From Novakomyces olei (lineage: Eukaryota): a stretch of DNA of 64,000 nt. The stretch covers positions 1,612,001-1,676,000 of the forward strand of contig JADEYG010000007.1 of NCBI GenBank assembly GCA_016906335.1, written 5' to 3'. The position numbers and the translations under genes were made by a program. A model generated the notes under the pieces. It saw nothing but the letters and a program-made list of their open reading frames with translations. It was not told where the DNA came from and searched no databases. This document shows, one piece after another, positions 14,600 to 64,000 of this stretch (position 1 is the first letter of the stretch; every line of letters begins with the position of its first letter).

Positions 14600-17025
<2,426 letters not shown>

Positions 17026-17449
17026 CAGGGTTGTTGTCCGAATAGCCTGAATAAGTACTTTTGTTTTAAATTTGTCCTACTGTACAAATCGTATTACTAT
17101 GAACGTGCTAGTGGTCTCGCACAATTTCATTTAGTTTATGTATATCCATCTGTTTAATCCTAGGCGCAAATCGTATTACTAATGTTTTATGCGTCGTAAT
17201 TTGCTCTATTTTTCTATTATTTATTTCACGTAAAAAATTATTGCGACTCTGCCGGTTCATTTGTAAATAGGATACAAACAGCGATAAAATTGAGCTACCA
17301 GCAAAAGGTCTAGCGCGTAAACAATGCCCATTGTATTTCGGAGCAGGAAAAGATAAGACGTAGTAAATACCAAAAAAAAAAAAAAAGAGAGAAGCCATAA
17401 AACGTCCCGTCTTATTGAGTAAATTCTTATATTATACGCAGCACGTAGC

Positions 17450-18238
17450 TCACTGGATTCCGCTTGAGGTAACCTCGCATTCGTTATCCTCGTAGTCGGT
17501 ACTCTCGCTATCCCCACAATCAGGGCAGTCGGTAATATCGCATTCGACACCATCGACTCCGTTATCCTCGCTATCCTCGCTATCCTCGCTACTCAAGCTA
17601 TTCATGCACTCGGTAGCCTCGGAGTCGTAACCATCAGCCTGAGCCCTTGCAGACGCCTCTTCTTCCTGTGTGACATAATTGGCTACTAAACAAACGTTAG
17701 AGAAAGATGATCCACAAAATCAAAGAGGCAATATTATCCAATAAAAAGCAAGTGTATACTTACACACAGTAGGGTCAATAACCTCGACTTGTAGATAAGC
17801 TGGCAAACTTTGCCTCAACAAAACCGCTCTTCTTGAGCTTATTTGAGCTGCAAAGCCTCTAAAATAAATAACGTCAGTACACAGCATACAGTCAAATATC
17901 ACGACTCGTCGACATACCGAAACAAATGACAAAAGTCATGTAGAATTGGTCCATAAAATGATTTAACCGTAAGCCGATTCATCCTATTTGTATAATTAGC
18001 GGTCAGTGTATCGAACAAGACAAAAAGATTACGTTATGGCATTTAATATTTCAGGAGAGTGGTTGCTCGGATCTTGGGCTCGAACCAAGACGTGCTTTAT
18101 AGCTTCTGAATTTGTTTAAGCAACTTGGTCGATCAAGATTTCGGCCTTACCCGGCGTATCAAGAGCCAATGCACACCCTGCCGAGAGAAAAAGCACATTA
18201 ATAAAACCAAATACTCGAATTATAAACTTGTAGTGCAT
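17450..18238 (-). CDS. Secreted peptidase-inhibitor I9-like protein with acidic tail, 5 exons (18238-18151, 18105-18033, 17983-17918, 17858-17764, 17685-17450), 185 aa
   Basis: Four GT-AG introns (45, 49, 59, 78 nt), three with clear branch points, splice into one 558-nt frame. Signal peptide MHYKFIIRVFGFINVLFLSAGCALA; I9-like core ILHDFCHLFRGFAAQIS...LLRQ...VEVIDPTVLAN. Confidence 0.72.
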
Positions 18239-18937
18239 CGCTCCTCTTCGATAAATAGAATTATTAGAATCCTGATGAGGTGGAGGGCTGTGCCGTATTC
18301 ATATTTATATTGGTCAATAAGTTTTGCGGAGGCTAATAAAGTTTTGCGTCTTCTCATGATCATCTTGCTCTGTTTGCGGTCTCCTCACATTGACTGTAGC
18401 CTATATTTCATAGCGTTCATCGGTCGGTAAGGAAACGCGGAAAATGCTTCATATGCCGTCAGCAAGATTAGCCATGCTGCATAAAACTATGCCACAGGAA
18501 TATATCAGACACTGTGATTCTTCCTCCTCTACCAGTTTGTCATCCACTCGTCGAATTCAACAAACCTTCTATTCAGTTGTGCTATTCGTTAGTATCATAA
18601 CCGTGTTTACTTTACATATGACTCGTTATTGTTGCGATGAAAATAATGTGCGGCCCAACGCGGTAAATGACACCTTCAAGTGGGAAAAAGTCGGAGTAAG
18701 ACACGTCATAGCTTATTTTGAATTGATTTTTGTTTTTTTATAGCTTTTTGACAAATGTTTTAACGCCCTTGACCATTAGCACCGAGATTGACAACTGGTC
18801 ATGTAAAATATGGTATTCTGTAAATAAGACAGATGAAAATTATACGTTTCGGCCTGGCAACTTTTCAAATTTTATAGTTTAGGGACAGAATCTTTTTTCC
18901 GGTTTTCTAAACCAACTTGTTGATTAATTAATTATTT

Positions 18938-19092
<155 letters not shown>

Positions 19093-19401: not shown

Positions 19402-20973
19402 CTAAACTTCTCCAGCATTCACTTTCAAAAGGGCCTGTCGTCGTTTTGAATTTTCAATTATATCACGTCGATGAGCCGCCTTTTTAGCGTCATAAGCACT
19501 ACGCGTGGTAATACGCTGCCGACGAGGTGGCCTAGAGCGCAGTTCGTGTTTTTGCTGCTTATTTGGAGCAGGCAAAGCCATCATCCACTCGGGCACATCT
19601 GCCGCAGCTGAAGCACGAAGAACACTAGCAATACTCTTCATGTACGGGGCATCTTGCTTTGTATAAAAAGTAACCGCCCGGCCAGCTCGACCGGCCCGAC
19701 CTGTCCGACCAACGCGGTGAATATAGCTCGCCACTGTTTGAGGCAAATCGTAATTAACAACGACATTAATCCCCTTAAAGTCTATCCCACGGCTTAAAAG
19801 CTCTGTGCAAATAAGTAGCCAAATCTGCCCCTGACGTACACGCCGCACTACCTGCTGTCGATGTGCCGGGTCGCGATCCGAATGTATCACATCCACGCGA
19901 AGCGTGGGATCCCGCCGCAGTTCGTTGTAGAGTTCGTTGGCGCGTTCGATAGATTGCACAAACACAAGTGCCGGTGGCGGCAATGCTCCGCCTGTAATCA
20001 TTTGCCGAAACGCAATCAGTTTGCCCTGCTCGTTCCCGCAGTAAACGAGCCTCTGTTCTACGTCTTGATTGGCTGCTTCTGCCCGGCCAATTACAATGCG
20101 AGCTGCTTTTCCTGCCCAGACCTGCACGTGACTCGGGATGGTAGCACTAAAAAGCATACGCGGTACTGCCTGCGGTGTATGCTGAGCAATCTGCTCCATC
20201 GAAGGCCGCAGGGCAGCATCAAGTAGTTTATCTGCCTCATCTGCCACCAAGACGCAAATGTGAGCATAAGTGTTTGGATGCGTTTGTGCTGTATGCGCAA
20301 CGGCACCAGGCGTTCCAATCTCGATGGCAAACTCGGCACGGGCAGGGCACTTCTTTCCAGTGGACACAACGGCTACACGAGTGCCCTTGGCAAGGATCTT
20401 TGCCTCTGATATTGCTTGGTGAAGCAGTTCTTTCGTAGGGACGACAATGAGCGCATCCACGGATCGAGGAGGAGCAGTACCACGAGATTTAGCTTTCGTA
20501 TCTGCGTTAGGTTTAGAATTAGAATCGAAATTAGAATCGGAACCAGAGTTGTCAGACTCTAAATCAGACTCTGAATCAGACTCTGAATCAGATTTATATG
20601 TCGGTTTGCTCGTAGAATCCTCGTCGCCACTATTATCCCTCAAACTGCCCGATTCTAGCATCGAAATAATCGGCAGTAAATAAGCCAGAGTCTTTCCTGA
20701 CCCCGTTGGTGCAGAGACTATGACACTGCGGCGAGCAAATACGTAAGGCATCACGTGCTTCTGTACTGGCGTTGGTAGCACGTGGGTCACATTGTCCAAG
20801 ACAGTGTCGGGTATACATTCTGCAAACGTTGAAAGAGGCGGCAATTGATCACCGTGTACTTTAACGCGAGCCGGTTCTGCGTGGGAATCGATACGGCGAC
20901 GCTTTGTGCGCAGGCCGGCGTGGGCCGGTAAATTAGTGCCTTGCGATAGTAGCGAAAAGGTGTCTGATGGCAT
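19402..20973 (-). CDS. ROK1: DEAD-box RNA helicase Rok1/DDX52
   Basis: PTPVQ, APTGSGKTLAY, VPTKEL, DEADKL, SAT, QRLVYCGNEQGKL, PPALVFVQSIERA, ICTELLSRGIDFKG and YIHRVGRTGRAGR. Confidence 0.92.
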   Translation of the reverse strand: MPSDTFSLLSQGTNLPAHAGLRTKRRRIDSHAEPARVKVHGDQLPPLSTFAECIPDTVLDNVTHVLPTPVQKHVMPYVFARRSVIVSAPTGSGKTLAYLLPIISMLESGSLRDNSGDEDSTSKPTYKSDSESDSESDLESDNSGSDSNFDSNSKPNADTKAKSRGTAPPRSVDALIVVPTKELLHQAISEAKILAKGTRVAVVSTGKKCPARAEFAIEIGTPGAVAHTAQTHPNTYAHICVLVADEADKLLDAALRPSMEQIAQHTPQAVPRMLFSATIPSHVQVWAGKAARIVIGRAEAANQDVEQRLVYCGNEQGKLIAFRQMITGGALPPPALVFVQSIERANELYNELRRDPTLRVDVIHSDRDPAHRQQVVRRVRQGQIWLLICTELLSRGIDFKGINVVVNYDLPQTVASYIHRVGRTGRAGRAGRAVTFYTKQDAPYMKSIASVLRASAAADVPEWMMALPAPNKQQKHELRSRPPRRQRITTRSAYDAKKAAHRRDIIENSKRRQALLKVNAGEV

Positions 20974-22473
20974 CTGTCTCCTCAAACAAACTCAAACTTG
21001 TATGCCTAAAGAAATTGCATGTTGTCAAAGCCGGATTTTTTTCCTGAATAATTCTTTTTCTCATTTATTTAATGTGTTTTTATTTGTGTATTTATTTTTA
21101 TTTTATTTTATTTTATATATATTTATAAAGCCTTCTGTTGAAATATGAATCTATTATCCCCTTATTAAATAAATTATCATCATCATAATTTGATGAATAT
21201 GACATATCTAAATTATTATTATTATTTTCCTCTTTTTTTTTACCATTTGTATTAAAATTATTTGATATTTGACATATAGTCTGCAGAGCCAGAAATGCCA
21301 GAAATGCCAGCAGAATGGGCCTCGAGACTAAACGCAGACTGAACCCGTTCCAGCCAGACAAGATAAACTTAATAATATACACTCGCCGACCCACTGACCG
21401 GCTAAGACAATTCTACCAAGAGCGTCAGTTGGTTGACTTTTAGCTTTACTGAAACCTCACTCAAAAATACATAGCTACATACATATAGCTCAAGCGAACC
21501 CTCATACCCTCGAGGGATTCAGCTAAAGCAATCTAGAGTTCCTAATTCATTTAATCTACCATAAGAGCAAATTCCAACCTGATATATTTATTGGTTCTTT
21601 GCTTACATAATCGTACCTGCATGTACAATGCGTATTATACTTTAAAGTAAACACCGTTTTATAATGTAAACTTTCTTCGAGTTGAACGAGCTTCTTCTTT
21701 GAGGATAGGCGTTGTCTTATTCGGTAGCAGCCACGTGGATAATTACTAGTTGCACGTTCTAGGACATACAGTACCATTAAAATAACCAGATTAGACAAAG
21801 CAGGAACGTCAAATCGATGGCTTCATGCCCTGAAACTGATTTGCTGACTCATATCTTGAAGCTCCTGTTTGCACGTTTAGAGCACTCTTCCATTTCAAAG
21901 TCCGATGGTCGGAGCACTGCTCACGCTTATAACACTCTCTACAAGGAAGTTGCGAGATCTTAATTTTAACTGTAATCAGGGTATTCGCTTATTCTTATCT
22001 AATATTTTTTTGTCCACCTTTTGATAAATTTGCTTTAAAAAGACAAAAGAATAATTGGGCACTACTAAGCAAGCCTGCCTGCCATCCTTTGCAAGGTGCG
22101 TAGGTGGAGCTGAAGGGCGGGCTTTTAAATCCCATAGGCTCCTCGCCTAAATTTGCATCTTTGCCAGCTCGTATATCACCAGCTGACTCCTCGCTGCATC
22201 GTGCAGACATCGAGCAAGGCCTTTATTTTTTTCGAGTCAGGATTCGTTTAGCCAATTTTCAGTTGGCTTGGCTCGAGCTTTTTTGGCCAGCCTCGCTTGG
22301 TTGGAACGAAACTCGTTGCAGATATTCATTTGGGTAGTCATTCAGCAGAGGAGGAAACGAATAGATACGAGTCAGAGAAGGGCAGAGCAGAGAGAGAGTT
22401 AGGTTCTATTGTGCTTTTCATAAAAGAAATTCATTCTTTTATTTCGGCACTCGCCTGACAATAATTTTTTGCC

Positions 22474-23217
22474 ATGGAAGCTCTATCAGCGCGACGGCGG
22501 CAGCGGCCCGAGCCGCTGTCGCTTACTCAAAGCGCTTACAAATCGCTAATTGAGCCACTAAGCCCACCGCTTTCTGGCCGTAGTACAGGGTTTGCTATAC
22601 TAAATGACAACAAAAACCAGGTGGTAAATGAAATGCCTACCCCACAAACCGATAATTTTGATTCTGAATCAAAAGCAGCACTTGCCTCGCCCGCAGCGAT
22701 ACCTGCCACCAGGTATTCTGCTGATACTGTGTACAGCGAACTTCGACACGTTCCTTTGCCTTTTATTCACGATGCACTGACTGCTCTGGCACCGTCATAT
22801 TTCCGCGACCGGAGAAGTTCCAACGTCTGTCTTGTTCTCAGTCACCAATCATCAGCAGCTGCTAGCGTGCGGTGTGTTGCTGCGGAAAACAACCTGCCTT
22901 TTATACGTCTGCACCTCGAATACTTAATGCTGCGATTACCCCGTATTTTCCGGCAATTGCTGGGATTGGAATTGGGTAATGGCGCTTTCATTGAGCTATG
23001 TAGCTCTACAGTACCGCACCGCAAGGCGAGCCGACGGCGATTGATAGAAGCTCTACGAGTGTGGATTTACTTTGGAGAGTTTTGCCGAAAAGATACTGAA
23101 GCTAGCGATAGCAATGATGATTCCGAGGACGAAGATGACGAGGACGAAGATGATCTCGATATAAAGGTTGCTCTTACGGATTTGCTTGCAGCTTGTGGGG
23201 CGCCAAGGAGAGCATAA
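22474..23217 (+). CDS. Hypothetical protein, possibly with a divergent BTB/POZ-like domain
   Basis: Clean 247-aa ORF with GCCATGG context; pattern SNVCLVL...RLHLEYL...IFRQLL...IEALRVWIYFG resembles a BTB topology; acidic tail. Confidence 0.6.
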   Translation: MEALSARRRQRPEPLSLTQSAYKSLIEPLSPPLSGRSTGFAILNDNKNQVVNEMPTPQTDNFDSESKAALASPAAIPATRYSADTVYSELRHVPLPFIHDALTALAPSYFRDRRSSNVCLVLSHQSSAAASVRCVAAENNLPFIRLHLEYLMLRLPRIFRQLLGLELGNGAFIELCSSTVPHRKASRRRLIEALRVWIYFGEFCRKDTEASDSNDDSEDEDDEDEDDLDIKVALTDLLAACGAPRRA

Positions 23218-37155: not shown

Positions 37156-38856
37156 ATGCCAGAATCTGGGTGCAGAGTGCTACCGCGCAGCTTGTCTGCT
37201 CTAGCAGAAAACTGTTTTGAAGAAGGCTTGTGTAAGCTTATGACTGCAATCCCAATTCTCTTTTAGGCTTGAAATGATTCGTTTTATAATCATTCTTCTT
37301 CTTCCTCTTCTTCGTCTCATATACCTCTCTAATCTATCAACAAGACGGCCGCGGGTTCGATATTCTTATCGCTGCTACAAGTCCGCAAGGCAATTTGCCT
37401 CCAGAGTTCATTCCGTACGCAGACCATCTGGTCTTGGCTGCTACTGTAATGGTACAGTCGGCAGAACACGCCTCAGAATCCTCAACGGCCACTCTAAGGG
37501 CAACCCAACTTTTCCTCAATCAAACTGCCTGTTCTATTGAACTGGCAATGGACCACGATGAAACTCGTGATGCCTGGAAGGAATTGGCAATTACATCGCT
37601 TGCCTTTGAACAGGCCCCGCGTTCGCGTTTACAAAGGCGCCAGCAAACAGCAGCTCTACGCAACACTTTTTACTCTACACAAGAGAGTCCTGCAGACGAG
37701 GCTCTGGAACAAGAGCTGCTGGTAAAATCAAACATTTTTTCGGAATTTCCGGATTTTTGGAGCTTCTGTGGACACGTATTCCAGCTAGGCGACGCTCGTG
37801 ATTACGATCAACCTGTGGTCTTGGCCGATTCTGTAAATCAACAGCCTTTGCCTTTAGCGCTACGCTTTTACAGCCTATTCGAGTCCCTTTTACGGTTCGT
37901 CAAGGCTCTTTCACCCAGTCACCAGACTGTTCTGCCTCGCCATTACCTTGTCGGCCAACGTGATTCTCCAGAATTTTCAAAGATTGCTGAGGTCTTGGTT
38001 TCTTGTTGCACTAGCGGCACCAAAAATATAACGACATTCGATCATCTTTCTCCTGACGTCTCGCTACAACTGCTCGATCAAGCAATCGGCTGTGCAAGCG
38101 CTCGTGCCCAGTTGCTTGATAGCGCTTGGGCAGCATTGCAACAACGTGAACTTTATCCAGTTAACTGGAGTGCTCAATTACTGGCTGCTTTGTCTCGGGC
38201 TTTAAGACGGCAGTCCTTGCCATTATATTGTCATTTGTTGTCTGTATGCTGTCCTTACACTAGGATTTATTTATTTACGTATTCATGTATATATGTTTTT
38301 ATACATTTTTTATTCTTTGATTTGCCATTTCCACTATTTCCTTGCTAATCTTTAGTGTTTTCGAGGCCGCGTTGTTGAGCCGCTTCTTTTAACAATGTTT
38401 GAGTTATTGGCAATTTACGATCGTCGCTCTGATTCAGCGGGACACTTGCTTCTAGATCCGCTAGCGTTAATTCTTCCCGGAAAGCCAACGCTTTCGTCTC
38501 TTGCTAAACTGGCTTTTGCCTGTGAATTATATTTGAATACGATTTTACAGAAAAGAAGTGTAGCGCCTGCACGGTTATGTAAAATTGCTCTAAACGGAAT
38601 CGATGAGAGGGAAAAGGTAATACAGCAAACTTCCCAAAGTCAATCGTCTCTCAATGAATGCGATTCTTTTGCTCTTCGTATCCTCACTCAATCGCATACA
38701 AAAATGCGTCTAGCATTAGCAGACTCGGATCAGGAAAAGAACCGTTTATTGTCCCATGTGAAGCCAAAACTCGTTGTCAAAAGGGCTTCAAAGTACTGTG
38801 ATGCGGATGAAAGTGCACAATTTTCAAAGAGAATGCGTCTCGAGCTTGAGCTTTAG
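37156..38856 (+). CDS. Hypothetical helical protein, possibly Nse5-like; 3 exons (37156-37231, 37345-38243, 38356-38856)
   Basis: Two GT-AG introns with CTAAT branch points join an upstream exon and ORFs 37395 and 38395 in frame. The N-terminus reads CFEEGLYGRGFDIL...FIPYADHLVLAATV. Identity is tentative. Confidence 0.6.
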
Positions 38857-47832: not shown

Positions 47833-47919
47833 TCGTCTCTTCCGTTTGATCGTCGCGACTATCGTTTATCGCATAAATAACAAATTAAATAAAACAAATA
47901 CCTAATTATAGCAAATATT

Positions 47920-48101
47920 ACAGCAAATATTAATTTACAGCAAATATTAATTTACAGCAAATATTAATTTAAAGCAAATATTAATTTAAAGCAAATATTA
48001 ATTTACAGCAAATATTAATTTACAGCAAATATTAATTTACAGCAAATATTAATTTACAGCAAATATTAATTTACAGCAAATATTAATTTACAGCAAATAT
48101 T
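47920..48101. repeat. 17-bp minisatellite (ACAGCAAATATTAATTT) x10 plus a partial copy
   Basis: Read directly; two adjacent units carry the AAAGC variant. Confidence 0.97.
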
Positions 48102-58539: not shown

Positions 58540-60486
58540 TGTTGCATAAATGCACAGCCACTGAGCATGAAATTGAGATGAGTATTAGACAAGAGTTTCC
58601 CCTCGATTCAGACGGGGTCAGTAAGCGAATGTAATGGAATCGAGGAGGTTGGAAAAGGTGCCAATTGGGAAAGTGATGAATATTAAATCGAGGAAAATAG
58701 CAATGGAGAAAAGTAGCAATTCTTCCCCAATTGACAAGAGTAATGAGGATACTGGCAAGCAAACCAAACCCGGTCTTTAGATTAAGAGCGTATAATTTGA
58801 AAACTCGTTTTAATTAACCAATTCAGTGCTGAGCAGTTAATTGGACTAATTGCAGCTATCCCAATCCTGCCTTGACTCCCTGAACAATGACCACTGAGGG
58901 GGCCAAACCGGTCAATCGGCTCTCTGCTTGTTCCCTCTTGCCACCCTGTGTCTACGCGTGCAGTGTTATTATTCTGGTAAAGATTCAGAGACTGTAATCT
59001 CTGCAATTTTCAGGTTCTGGTTTTAAGCACACGCCTTCAGTACAGTGCGTGTAGTCTTACCGTGAACTCTTAATTCCTAAAGCACCAATCCCTCGTTGCA
59101 GCCTCTCCTGTTTACAGAATTAGATGCTCCAAAATTTAGAATAACAATTGCTCAGAATGCGGTTCTCGATACCAACAGCCGTACAGGTTTGACGCTCTCA
59201 GCTTGAATATCGCAGATTCAGTAGTGGAATTAATGTTAATTCATACTCGCCGAGTTTATTAATACACTATTTTTTTATTTTATTTAATTTTAATTTTAAT
59301 TTTTTCCTCGCTATATTTCTTAAATATTTCCTTTATTTCTACCACTCTTTGCCCCACAATTCCGTGTTCTGGGGCCGAACTTGCCGCCACACTATTGGCT
59401 GAACGTGTGCATGGAATTCCCGCTTCTAGACTCTTGCCGATTACAGTTGTATGCTTGAACGCTGAGCCCGGCTCTTGTGTCCACATGCTCGTGTAGAAAG
59501 GCTAAGGCTCGTAGACCCGACAAAAATATATAGAAAATGAGCTTGAGATATGCTAATCAAGGCTAGCCAATAATCGGCCATTTTGTCGCTCGCTAATGTA
59601 TGGGACAATACTCAATAATAAAATGCTCAACAAGAGGCACGAATATAGCTCAATCCCAATTGTTTGGCAAGCAATTGTGGCCGTCTCGTCCGTGGACGAG
59701 CGTGGATGGGTGATATCATTAGACACTGCACGCTCGATTTATCGCTTGTATTTCGACCCTAATTCCGGCCCTATTTCCACGACTATAATAATCGCTTATA
59801 TTAGCCGCGCCGCCCACGTGAGCCGGGGAAAAGGATAGGGAAATTGTGTATGATGTAATAATACAAGCATGGACAAGTGGGAAGCACTTGCTTGGAATTG
59901 TTGCGCACGACTCGGCGGCCGACTTTGTAGAGCTATCTTTGTAAGCGCTCTCCTACATTCTTGCCGGGAGTGTCGGCTGTGGTAAGGTTTACGCTTGAGC
60001 GCTAGTGCCGTTAGGATTAGTAGCTTCATGTGACCCTACTTTAATACGAGGCAAATTTATAAAATAATAATAATTAATACATATTATTTGATTGTACGGC
60101 TTTTTCAATGAACATGCGACGGCTCTGTGCAAGCAGTTTAGGAATATATACAAATATATAATAAATACAGGTTTTGCTGGCTGTTTTACAGAGCGGTCAT
60201 GAAATTTTGGTTAAATCCTGCTCGACTGTTTATTATTAAATGCAGTATCCGAATAAATAAATTTTGAACCAATAAATATACCCAATATAAAATAGCCGAT
60301 GAATATATATAAATATACGTTCAAGTTTAAAAAGCCAATGGAATAATCACAAAATACGGCTCTCTACAAGTAATCTTCCAGGGAGCAGGCAGGCACATGA
60401 CAAAATATACTGCTGCATAACATACAATATACAAAATATATAATAAAAGTGAGTAAATATTGCCACAGCAAAATGTGATCTGCCGT

Positions 60487-61374
60487 ATGGCGGCCGACTA
60501 TGACCGGCTCGAGTATTGGGCGGCGCGGCTCCAGAACGAGCAATCGGCCGGCGGATTTGAGTGGCTGCCGAACGGCACAAATGTACTCCTTAATCGGCTC
60601 TCAGAGGATTTCTCAGCGGACGAGCCTGTCCGACTGCTTTTACACATTGGACCAGGATCGTCACTGCTGACGCACCAAATATTGCAAAAATTGCCCTCCT
60701 CGACACATATGGTAAGCATTGACTTTGCGGGGAAAGCCTACGGGGACTGTGAGCGGGACGAGTTTGTGACAGCAGACTTACTCGACTGGCGCGAGCTACG
60801 TCATATACTTAAAGCCCACGGACCTTTTGATGCCATCGTTGACAAGAGCACGTCCGACGCGGTGGCAACGTTTCCCGACGTCTGCTTTGCCGTCGCCGAT
60901 AATACGGGCAGCGGTCCACGTACGCCTCTTGAAAAGACGGCAATAGACAAAGATAGTACTTCACCAAGCAATGGCAATGGCGACAGCAACGAGTGCAGGA
61001 TCTTTATGCTTTCGCCCAAGGCGCTCAATGACGAAAGCACTATGGAAGACTGTGACGCGGACGCGGCACCGGCCGTGATTGATCTCCTGAAAAAGGCCAA
61101 ACCTGGCGCAAAATTTATTCGCATTTCGGCGCTGGAGCTTCTTACTATACATCTCCATTATCTGGCTGCATCTACTTGCAAATGGTACTGTTTAAGCTAT
61201 TCTGCAGACCGCTGGAGAGGTGTTACCGCGTCACCCTACTGGACAGTAGAGCTGGCGGCCCAGTTTTCTGCAAACAGCGGCGTTTCTAGCAAAGATAACG
61301 GTCGTATAGTCAATGCTCCAACAATTTTTCATCGGCTCTACCTGCTCCACCACCAATTGCCCGCTGGTTTATAG
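60487..61374 (+). CDS. SAM-dependent methyltransferase, EEF1AKMT4/METTL13-N-like
   Basis: DYDRLEYWAARL...FEWL; motif I LLHIGPGSS; SIDFA; ADLLD; FDAIVDKSTSDA; LSYS. Confidence 0.75.
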   Translation: MAADYDRLEYWAARLQNEQSAGGFEWLPNGTNVLLNRLSEDFSADEPVRLLLHIGPGSSLLTHQILQKLPSSTHMVSIDFAGKAYGDCERDEFVTADLLDWRELRHILKAHGPFDAIVDKSTSDAVATFPDVCFAVADNTGSGPRTPLEKTAIDKDSTSPSNGNGDSNECRIFMLSPKALNDESTMEDCDADAAPAVIDLLKKAKPGAKFIRISALELLTIHLHYLAASTCKWYCLSYSADRWRGVTASPYWTVELAAQFSANSGVSSKDNGRIVNAPTIFHRLYLLHHQLPAGL

Positions 61375-62094: not shown

Positions 62095-63565
62095 TCAAGT
62101 AGCATTATTCGTTGGCAGCTGGCCAGCAGCATTAAACAAGCTTGCCAATTGTGCATACTCTTCCTTTATCCAGTTCATCCCTCCCGGCTCAGTCCATATC
62201 CCCGGACCTTGCTCTAAGACTTTGGGCACAGGCGCCTATCGTATTAGAAGCCACATTGAAGAACAGAGAATTTTATAATGATATGTTAAATGATAGAAGA
62301 GCCAAATAACTTACATCGGGCTGTTTCATTCGATCACTAGCTAGAACAGCTAAATATTGTAAATTGGCATTCAACCGTTTCTGACATCTATATTCTATAA
62401 GTAGCTGTATCATGTAGGGAGCAAATAATAAGAGAACAGATAAAAAAGAGAAAAAGAAAAAGCACAAGGGAGATGTATTGACCTATCGTGCTATGCATAG
62501 CCTTGTATATGATAGCATTGTAAGAATTGAAAATGAACTTAGAAAGGAAGGAGAAAAGGAGTTTAGCAAGTGCAAAAGATATGTCATAATGATTATTCTT
62601 GAAAAAACTTTAAACCCAATTTAGTTTGAAATTAAAGCCATGTTTAAGTGTGAATCAAGTCAAACCAAATGGATCTATTGTCAAAGATCAAAAATAATAA
62701 ACATAAATAAAACTAATAAGATAAAGAAAATAAAATAAACAATAAGACCATACTCTGCTTTTCGTGCGTCAGCTTGTGCAGGCAAACTTATCGATGCTGG
62801 CTCTGCACTATTGCTTTGCCTCAATATTTCGGCAAACAGCTCGTTGTTTATTTTCAGTAAAAGTGTAACTTTCTCTGCCTCCTTGTACCCTCCACCCCGT
62901 TTCGACTCTAGCGAAGCTGATCGCCGAGCCGCCGGTGCAATAGGACTATGAGCCTGTAGCCCTAACGGCGCACCATTGCTGTATGAGCTTTGTGGCTTCG
63001 CGCTAAATTGCGCAGCAGCGGCCATTGTAGGGCTTTGACTGTAAGTGTAAGAATGAGCGTCCGTCCCATATCCCGAGGATTCTGCGCTCATTTTTTCACT
63101 TGAGGCTAAATTAGCTGCATTCATGGAGGGCGATTGCTGTGAAAAAGGTGGCGAACCGCTGCCTTGAAAGTAGCCTGCAGGGCTATAGTCGTTTGTATAT
63201 TGCTGTGCATTGGGTACATGGTAATTATCAGGCGTATTCTTGAAATAGCCTTGTCCTCCTCCTCCAGATGCTCCTGGAGTCCACGTTGTAGGCGTAACAG
63301 GTATGAAGTTTTGTATTTGTTGCTGCTGCCTTTGTGCTTGCTGCTGCTGCTGCTGTTGTTGGTGATGGTGCTGTTGTTGTTGCTGCCTTCGGAGTTCGGC
63401 ATTAGATGTACGAAGGTTTGCTGAGCCCGGAGAAGAAGGCCGAGTGAAAGATCCGCGGCCGCCTGTAGCTAAAGCCGAATAATTAAAAGGTATAAAACTG
63501 ACGCCTTGTTGCCGAGTCGCGTTATTGCCGCTGTGGTTGTTTGCGCCGGCCGATTGGGACGGCAT
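62095..63565 (-). CDS. Gln-rich protein with a C-terminal SSXT/SS18-like domain (candidate SWI/SNF subunit), 3 exons
   Basis: polyQ N-terminus; EKVTLLLKINNELF...E|YRCQKRLNANLQYLAVLASD|APVPKVL...EEYAQLASLF, spliced across two GT-AG introns. Confidence 0.7.
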
Positions 63566-64000
63566 GCGAGCAGCTAGCGCCGCTAGAAGCAGCAAAATAG
63601 GCGCGGCTCAGACTAGAAATAATATTGAACGGCAATAGTAGGGTGAAAGCTTAAAACAAAGACTGGACGACGAGATTGCGACAAGACAAGGAGAAATGCA
63701 CAGATAATCTCGATAATTGCTGGTGGATAGAGCGCAAGCTGTAATGATCAGTCGACGTACTTTAAAGGTGGCAGTACACTTTTCTAACCGATGAAATGGT
63801 TGACAATGGCCACTAAATCAAACAGATGCGCCCGTAAGTGAATGGCAAAAGTCACTGCAGAGCTCGAACGGGCGTCTGTTTTAATTATCTTATTCTAGCG
63901 CAATGAATTTGTGATACTCTCTTATTTGTGCGATTCCACCATCAATTGGATAATGTATAGGCGGCGTATACATGTATAAATAAATATATATATATATAAT

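Follow-up and report, generated by a model that had tools for sequence, protein, structure and literature searches.

The window, the 64-kb stretch of genomic DNA to which all coordinates below refer, contains on its minus strand (17450-18238) a five-exon gene with a 558-nt coding sequence. The encoded 185-aa protein is probably a secreted, diverged relative of the I9 “safety-cap” subtilisin inhibitors. Judged by sequence, this protein derives from the I9 family and may function in the manner of its inhibitors. Its new part is the tail that continues behind the candidate P1 residue, secreted stand-alone I9 proteins being a kind that is already known.

The minus-strand gene model with its four GT-AG introns holds, and the splicing put forward in the original prediction, where the gene was described as hidden from the open reading frame track, yields exactly the 185-aa protein proposed there. 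Exon 1 (18151-18238) encodes aa 1-29, and exon 2 (18033-18105) encodes aa 30-54, which include the putative first strand and the start of the first helix. Exon 3 (17918-17983), the genomic frame of which differs from that of the other four exons, encodes aa 54-76 with the end of the first helix and the second strand. Exon 4 (17764-17858) encodes aa 76-107, namely the third strand, the second helix and a putative fourth strand with E101, D104 and V107, and exon 5 (17450-17685, stop codon at 17452-17450) encodes aa 108-185, with the candidate P1 residue N110 or Y111 followed by the acidic tail. The introns are GT..AG in all four cases and have phases 1, 2, 2 and 1. Intron 1 (18106-18150, 45 nt) and intron 4 (17686-17763, 78 nt) are both in frame with an internal stop, the former having the weakest branch site of the four. 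Intron 2 (17984-18032, 49 nt) has a donor without G at +5 and two branch-like motifs, and intron 3 (17859-17917, 59 nt; GTATGT..TAG with a branch motif) is supported by homology. Two in-frame acceptors, 17686 and 17683, lie 3 nt apart at the end of intron 4, and use of the latter would result in a protein that is one residue shorter. The introns in the genome's own small I9 gene measure 42 and 48 nt. A TATAAA at 18304-18309 on the same strand, 71 nt upstream of the ATG, is a possible core promoter element by consensus match.

The gene is flanked upstream by a DEAD-box helicase gene on the same strand (19402-20991) and downstream by a convergent kinesin gene ending at 17025, with no sign of a protease or effector cluster in this neighborhood. 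The genome comprises 14.3 Mb in 15 contigs, and its short GT-AG introns, together with a PrB-like prodomain whose identity to its 63 database matches (mostly ascomycete) does not exceed 46%, suggest an ascomycete lineage that has been sampled poorly. Tandem repeats are frequent in the window (74 rows in the TRF output, many of them short duplications of 2-4 copies). The longer arrays include two nearly perfect tetranucleotide microsatellites, one of 42 copies approximately 700 nt upstream of the gene (18924-19092) and one of 36 copies within the kinesin gene region (15056-15199), as well as a 17-nt unit in 10.8 copies with 98% identity (47918-48101). Frames of 250-352 aa without a Pfam match at E ≤ 0.001 are located at 22465-23217, 37290-38345 and 60457-61371 on the plus strand and at 62684-63607 on the minus strand.

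The likeness of aa 56-93 to I9 domains is real at the level of sequence. A profile made from 23 bacterial PF05922 loci (the 7 partial matches among the original 30 were left out) gives the spliced protein 15.4 bits on a scale of its own that is not comparable with the Pfam PF05922 cut-off of 21.2 bits (P = 8.6e-7; reached by 0 of 5000 shuffles, the shuffle maximum being 9.2). On the same profile the reversed sequence scores 0.5 bits, the PrB prodomain of the genome 19.8 and its small I9 protein 33.6. The match (17807-17979, minus strand) spans intron 3 and covers the second strand, hairpin, third strand and second helix. When these parts are scored as ungapped blocks, the third strand with the helix reaches 17.9 (0 of 3000 shuffles) and the second strand 7.8 (60 of 3000 shuffles), and the hairpin region, according to the alignment, appears to retain the hydrophobic residues L74 and F75. 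A comparison to a mixed set with hhalign yields a probability of 85.9 over aa 64-93, and pairwise scores are 64 and 67 against two Corallococcus prodomains (0 of 500 shuffles each) and 48 against the small I9 protein of the genome (0 of 2000). Fungal PrB prodomains resemble the protein only weakly (4.7 bits, a score reached by 3 of 2000 shuffles), all four pairwise tests against such prodomains are not significant, and the median pairwise score is 20 for 64 fungal prodomains versus 41 for 23 bacterial ones. Despite these best pairwise scores, a bacterial origin is not claimed because the fungal secreted proteinase-K prodomains lie outside the comparison set, so that the bacterial best matches are no evidence of transfer. 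None of the exons scored singly has an I9 match in Pfam, and a genome-wide six-frame I9 search lists two other loci and misses the spliced one.

The joining of the exons can be assessed against a null in which every possible single-intron junction peptide is scored with the I9 profile. Among the 9,372 junction peptides of the window, that of intron 3 has the top score (17.1 bits, the next being 6.8), and the intron 3 acceptor combined with another donor reaches 6.5 bits. When 40 ten-kb stretches of the same genome are added to the window (464 kb, 67,681 junction peptides), the intron 3 junction is the sole one at or above 10 bits, the next scoring 9.0. At the control locus, the small I9 gene, the presumed true intron scores 19.2 and a wrong junction 20.3, so where one exon alone matches strongly, the test may miss the exact junction. 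Enumeration produced 1363 splice paths, 867 of which yield at least 150 aa. The 25 best paths by I9 score all contain introns 2 and 3 and the intron 4 donor, and vary at intron 1 and between the two in-frame acceptors of intron 4. The alternatives for intron 1 have similar scores and homology gives no fix on it; accordingly, the joining of the signal peptide to the domain depends on splice signals alone.

According to a codon-position model for which 24 kb of long frames from this genome served as training data, the annotated frame beats the other two sense frames in each of the five exons. The complete coding sequence has log-odds of 0.6, an absolute score near zero, versus -99.9 and -75.7 in the wrong frames, these values being lowered in part by in-frame stops; the control gene gives 4.8 versus -53.3 and -28.8. 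Exons 1-4 score -12.1, which is matched by 48 of 416 background pieces, unmasked exons among them. The repeat spacings in the tail (15, 63, 9 and 9 nt) are all multiples of three. At the N-terminus, aa 1-25 (18238-18164) look like the signal peptide that was predicted originally, with a basic N-region, a hydrophobic core (Kyte-Doolittle hydropathy reaching 2.2 over aa 6-26) and A-x-A at positions 23-25, a judgment made by eye from hydropathy and this motif that depends on intron 1. An N-glycosylation sequon is present at N44, in exon 2.

Outside the core, the domain is degenerate. The first-strand block scores -6.0 (reached by 1233 of 3000 shuffles) and the last-strand block -2.7 (891 of 3000), whereas known members score at least 14.5 and at least 7.8, respectively (all ungapped, with the scores of known members including self). 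The upstream frames contain no better first-strand candidate fitting the gene, and an amphipathic strand pattern is seen at aa 97-103. Thus, the I9 domain of the original prediction stands with respect to the central strand-strand-helix, whereas its first and last strands are at shuffle level. The ‘VE.D’ portion of the proposed pattern likewise fails, given that two residues separate E101 from D104: the helix-capping E-x-D is intact in neither register, E101-x-x-D104 or D104-x-T106, and is only half kept.

The contacts of subtilase propeptides with the enzyme are made by the sheet, by a hairpin that acts as a hydrophobic plug, by the helix cap E-x-D and by the P4-P1 tail at the C-terminus, and in SUB1 the P4 and P1 residues are located three and six residues past the capping Asp (Asp211, Val214, Asp217), as set out in the available text of PMC6993865. 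The spacing of D104, V107 and N110 is the same as this cap/P4/P1 spacing, P1 becoming Tyr if the distal intron 4 acceptor is used. The chain, however, runs 74 residues past Y111, and a free end at P1 would appear only after cleavage. The protein is not assigned to the regular I9 members: tests of the first strand, the E-x-D cap and the free P1 end found the first degenerate, the second broken and the third absent.

The acidic Cys-containing tail is present as described in the original prediction: aa 112-185 include 25 D/E, 16 S/T, 5 Cys, a single K/R and no His among 74 residues. Within its coding sequence there is a tandem duplication (17468-17584, minus strand), the 54-nt copies of which (17531-17584 and 17468-17521) are 63 nt apart and 70% identical, and a 9-nt repeat (17563-17591, minus strand; 3.2 exact copies) encoding Ser-Glu-Asp. 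Each 54-nt copy specifies one E-C-[DE]-[IV]-T word, and the CxxxxCxxC motif (17542-17516), which occurs once, straddles the seam of the duplication. A link between the 21-codon period of the tail and the genome's giant repeat protein was considered and rejected, the two genomic occurrences of E-C-[DE]-[IV]-T both falling in this tail (control, 11). The best Pfam match of exon 5 is CxC7 (13.3 bits, E = 0.088, against a cut-off of 27), and the last 47 aa have no usable Atlas match, a result that the tool itself rates as uninformative either way. Because of the 74 tandem-repeat rows in the window, local duplication can be regarded as an ordinary process here. The tail seems to have grown by such duplication and may be a recently acquired, floppy appendage.

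Homologue searches were blank. Among 97 candidates from a search of longer proteins with exon 5, none reached E ≤ 10; the genomic-frame read-through 17594-18103, a query of low sensitivity that lacks exon 3 and is half intron-derived, matched 0 of 1,835,955,588 representatives at E ≤ 0.001; 0 of 136 pattern matches in metagenomes were confirmed; and exon 4 had 0 matches in the PDB. Within the genome, exon 4, exon 5 and the gene DNA each find only themselves, and the gene is single-copy. These blanks carry little weight given that the last exon of the genome's ordinary small I9 gene, used as the search control, is likewise without matches and that the best identity of the PrB prodomain is 46%.

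The S8 genes found in the genome, a lower bound set by the exon-by-exon search, are three in number and reside on contigs C1, C4 and C12: a PrB-like protease with an I9 prodomain (L001, 1285-2727, plus strand), a kexin-like protease with an S8 pro-domain (L006, 313-3096, minus strand, contig C4) and TPP II (L004). The same search, again as a lower bound, found no secreted proteinase-K-type gene other than PrB. In the kexin-like protease, approximately 55 residues of Ser/Gly/Lys/Phe-rich repeats of 4-5 residues lie between the basic prodomain cleavage site and the catalytic domain. The small I9 gene used as the control is of the Pbi2/POIA1 type and is located on contig C3 (L002, 1495-1809, minus strand), with three exons encoding a signal-less 74-aa protein. 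The gene described here has no S8 domain, being bounded by its stop at 17450 and the end of the convergent kinesin gene. When the profile is extended by approximately 45 residues into mature bacterial subtilases, the match stops at aa 93 as before, without any lengthening. These results, together with the confinement of the S8 matches to the three contigs, agree with the earlier view that no protease follows the I9 part. Use of the distal intron 4 acceptor generates a D-x2-V-x4-T-Q word, defined after the sequence had been seen, which 188 of 20000 shuffles also contain. In 6 of 16 non-redundant bacterial subtilases this word crosses the propeptide/mature junction, and 25 of 29 bacterial junctions, like pro-proteinase K (8rse), have a Gln nine residues past the capping Asp. 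The word may be a faint relic of such a junction.

We tentatively favor, at a probability somewhat short of even, the reading that the gene encodes a secretory-pathway I9-type pro-inhibitor of subtilases, with the tail trimmed near N110/Y111. This reading draws on the score on the I9 profile, the pairwise scores and the unique intron 3 junction, from the fit of D104, V107 and N110 to the SUB1 spacing, and from the secreted stand-alone I9 proteins reported, in the available text of PMC4039746, from 97 ascomycete species. As the genome encodes a separate signal-less small I9 protein, the addition of a secreted one would make a pair of a kind already known. The outer strand blocks at shuffle level and the broken cap speak against it, as do the weak similarity to the prodomains of fungal PrB, the only cognate I9 subtilase found in the genome, and the lack of an orthologue in the homologue searches; moreover, the characterized stand-alone inhibitors, as far as the accessible accounts describe them, end at or near P1.

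All steps of the mechanism beyond the sequence match we infer as follows. The signal peptide (aa 1-25) would be removed and aa 26-111 would fold as a propeptide-like alpha/beta domain that docks on a subtilase by its hairpin and sheet, with V107 at P4 and N110 or Y111 at P1. The target could be the genome's PrB-like protease, in the secretory route or the vacuole, or a foreign secreted subtilase. As the chain continues past P1, the floppy acidic tail would have to be cut off by the target first, and the remainder would resemble a cleavage product and probably inhibit weakly or transiently. The tail itself might serve as an appendage for solubility, charge or tethering, its Cys residues engaged in disulfides rather than in a metal site. 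We regard as unlikely, though worth stating, the scenario in which the protein is a self-unmasking I9 pro-inhibitor that descends from a subtilase gene, having lost the catalytic domain and gained an acidic repeat tail behind the old maturation site, which the target cuts to activate the inhibitor.

Among the alternatives, the one with the best claim, while still rather unlikely, is that the gene is a degenerate relic of a secreted proteinase-K-type subtilase which has lost its catalytic domain, gained a repeat-grown acidic end and is expressed as a non-inhibitory protein; any function would then reside in the acidic, disulfide-linked tail, carried by the domain, for instance in the wall or matrix. 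Such an origin would account for the degeneration of precisely the protease-facing determinants, for the junction word with its Gln spacing, for the failure to find a secreted proteinase-K-type gene besides PrB, and for a tail of the kind that the abundant short duplications of the window can produce. However, the junction word was defined post hoc and requires the distal acceptor, the extended profile adds nothing beyond aa 93, and mature N-termini carry a W-G-L word that is missing here; besides, origin from a truncated protease is compatible with inhibition. It is less probable again, and in our view doubtful, that the gene is non-functional as drawn, whether because it is a decaying or unexpressed copy or because intron 1 is spliced otherwise, leaving the signal peptide unjoined to the domain. 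The near-zero absolute coding score, the many splice paths that give long products, the similar scores of the intron 1 variants, the weak branch site of that intron and the blank homologue searches would all fit. Nevertheless, the frame is open across five exons and scores best in each of them, the repeats keep the frame, intron 3 is supported by homology, a TATAAA lies upstream, and the equally blank small I9 control shows that the failed searches are attributable to insufficient sensitivity or to sparse coverage of the lineage.

The possibility that the protein mainly binds metal in a secreted form, Ca2+ through its carboxylates or Zn/Cu through CxxxxCxxC, appears slight. The 25 acidic residues and 5 Cys within 74 residues are suggestive, but the Cys cluster crosses the duplication seam, which weakens the idea of a metal site, occurs only once and is accompanied by no His, and the CxC7 match attains half of its cut-off. 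Cysteines in the secretory pathway are normally oxidized, and those of the tail are more likely to form disulfides than to make up a metal site. The ‘metal-binding effector’ of the original prediction is therefore without support, and the same is true of ‘effector’ as a label, the data at hand containing no information on the lifestyle of the organism. Slighter still are the prospects of a chaperone that acts in trans on the folding of a subtilase without a propeptide, another of the roles first suggested: propeptides and PoIA1 do show chaperone activity according to the accessible part of 10.64898/2026.05.05.722857, but no client is evident among the at least three S8 genes, the PrB-like and kexin-like proteases carrying prodomains of their own and the third encoding TPP II. 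The most improbable alternative is a fifth intron starting at the donor-like GTGAGC at 17453, which overlaps the stop codon; joined to an acceptor at 17411, it would append a Leu/Phe-rich stretch and thus create a hydrophobic C-terminus, with a membrane or GPI anchor on an acidic stalk. None of the three candidate introns starting at 17453 contains a branch-like motif, the hydrophobicity is a product of a poly-T run, and some 30 residues would still follow the stretch. A minus-strand poly-T run is located at 17372-17387, approximately 65 nt past the stop.

Yeast YHR138C is a signal-bearing relative of Pbi2. The combination of a signal peptide with a stand-alone I9 domain is not as unusual as the original prediction held, since secreted proteins of this kind are described, in the available text of the respective reports, from ascomycetes (PMC4039746) and Plasmodium (PMC6993865). 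The 95-aa SS1G_01593 of Sclerotinia sclerotiorum, a secreted stand-alone I9 protein with 99 secreted homologues in these 97 species, resembles the protein described here in its fungal source, I9 domain and lack of a protease domain, and its signal peptide has a putative counterpart here. As compared by description alone, however, it lacks the 74-aa acidic duplicated tail of the 185-aa protein, and the strands are the conserved part of its family, whereas the outer strands are degenerate here (PMC4039746, from its accessible portion). The cytosolic stand-alone inhibitors, namely yeast Pbi2, Pleurotus POIA1 and Trichoderma TrI9 (10.64898/2026.05.05.722857; PMC10512327, both as excerpted), share with the present protein, as does the genome's 74-aa I9 protein, the central strand-hairpin-strand-helix pattern. 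Similarly to the present protein, TrI9 has an appendage, which is disordered and comprises approximately 80 aa or half of the protein, but there it is N-terminal, and the C-terminal loop enters the cleft and ends at P1 (10.64898/2026.05.05.722857, same excerpt); here, the appendage is located C-terminally, behind P1, and there is a putative signal peptide. The I9 family is characterized in the accessible passages of PMC10512327 as being without disulfides, in contrast to the five Cys of the tail.

Plasmodium SUB1-ProM (153 aa, 27-aa signal peptide) is a secreted stand-alone propeptide mimic, and Toxoplasma MIC5 also stands alone, but SUB1-ProM retains an E-x-D/N cap, has its end inside the cleft and is encoded next to subtilase genes rather than between a DEAD-box helicase and a kinesin; a convergent origin has been proposed for the stand-alone I9 inhibitors (all from the available text of PMC6993865). 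Arabidopsis SPI-1 is a further stand-alone propeptide mimic (PMC11371169, in excerpt); other secreted I9-domain proteins appear in PMC7483729, PMC4890743 and PMC10581046, the accessible text of which does not give their architecture, and PMC12941956, so far as accessible, concerns S8 enzymes with their own propeptide. The proteinase-K-type propeptides (PF05922; 8rse; those of myxobacteria) include the bacterial sequences with the best pairwise scores, and a G-F-A-A strand is common to 8rse and the present protein; these propeptides precede a catalytic domain, in contrast to the gene described here. An I9 domain with an acidic C-terminal extension was not found in the literature covered, most subscription papers lying outside that search.

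Taken by itself, the analysis recovers a small unannotated gene with good statistical support. If the protein is non-inhibitory, it would count as a secreted, acidic orphan and be only modestly interesting. A fungal I9 protein that is secreted naturally is of practical interest given that TrI9, according to the available part of 10.64898/2026.05.05.722857, needed engineering for secretion in order to protect recombinant proteins. If the self-unmasking scenario is true, the gene is an intermediate caught in the act, which would imply a protease-activated form of I9 control and would indicate that truncated protease genes, rather than convergence, can give rise to stand-alone I9 inhibitors. More generally, a tail that proves to be a removable extension on the prime side would represent an added way to switch on I9 inhibitors and provide a test case for the origin of stand-alone I9 genes.
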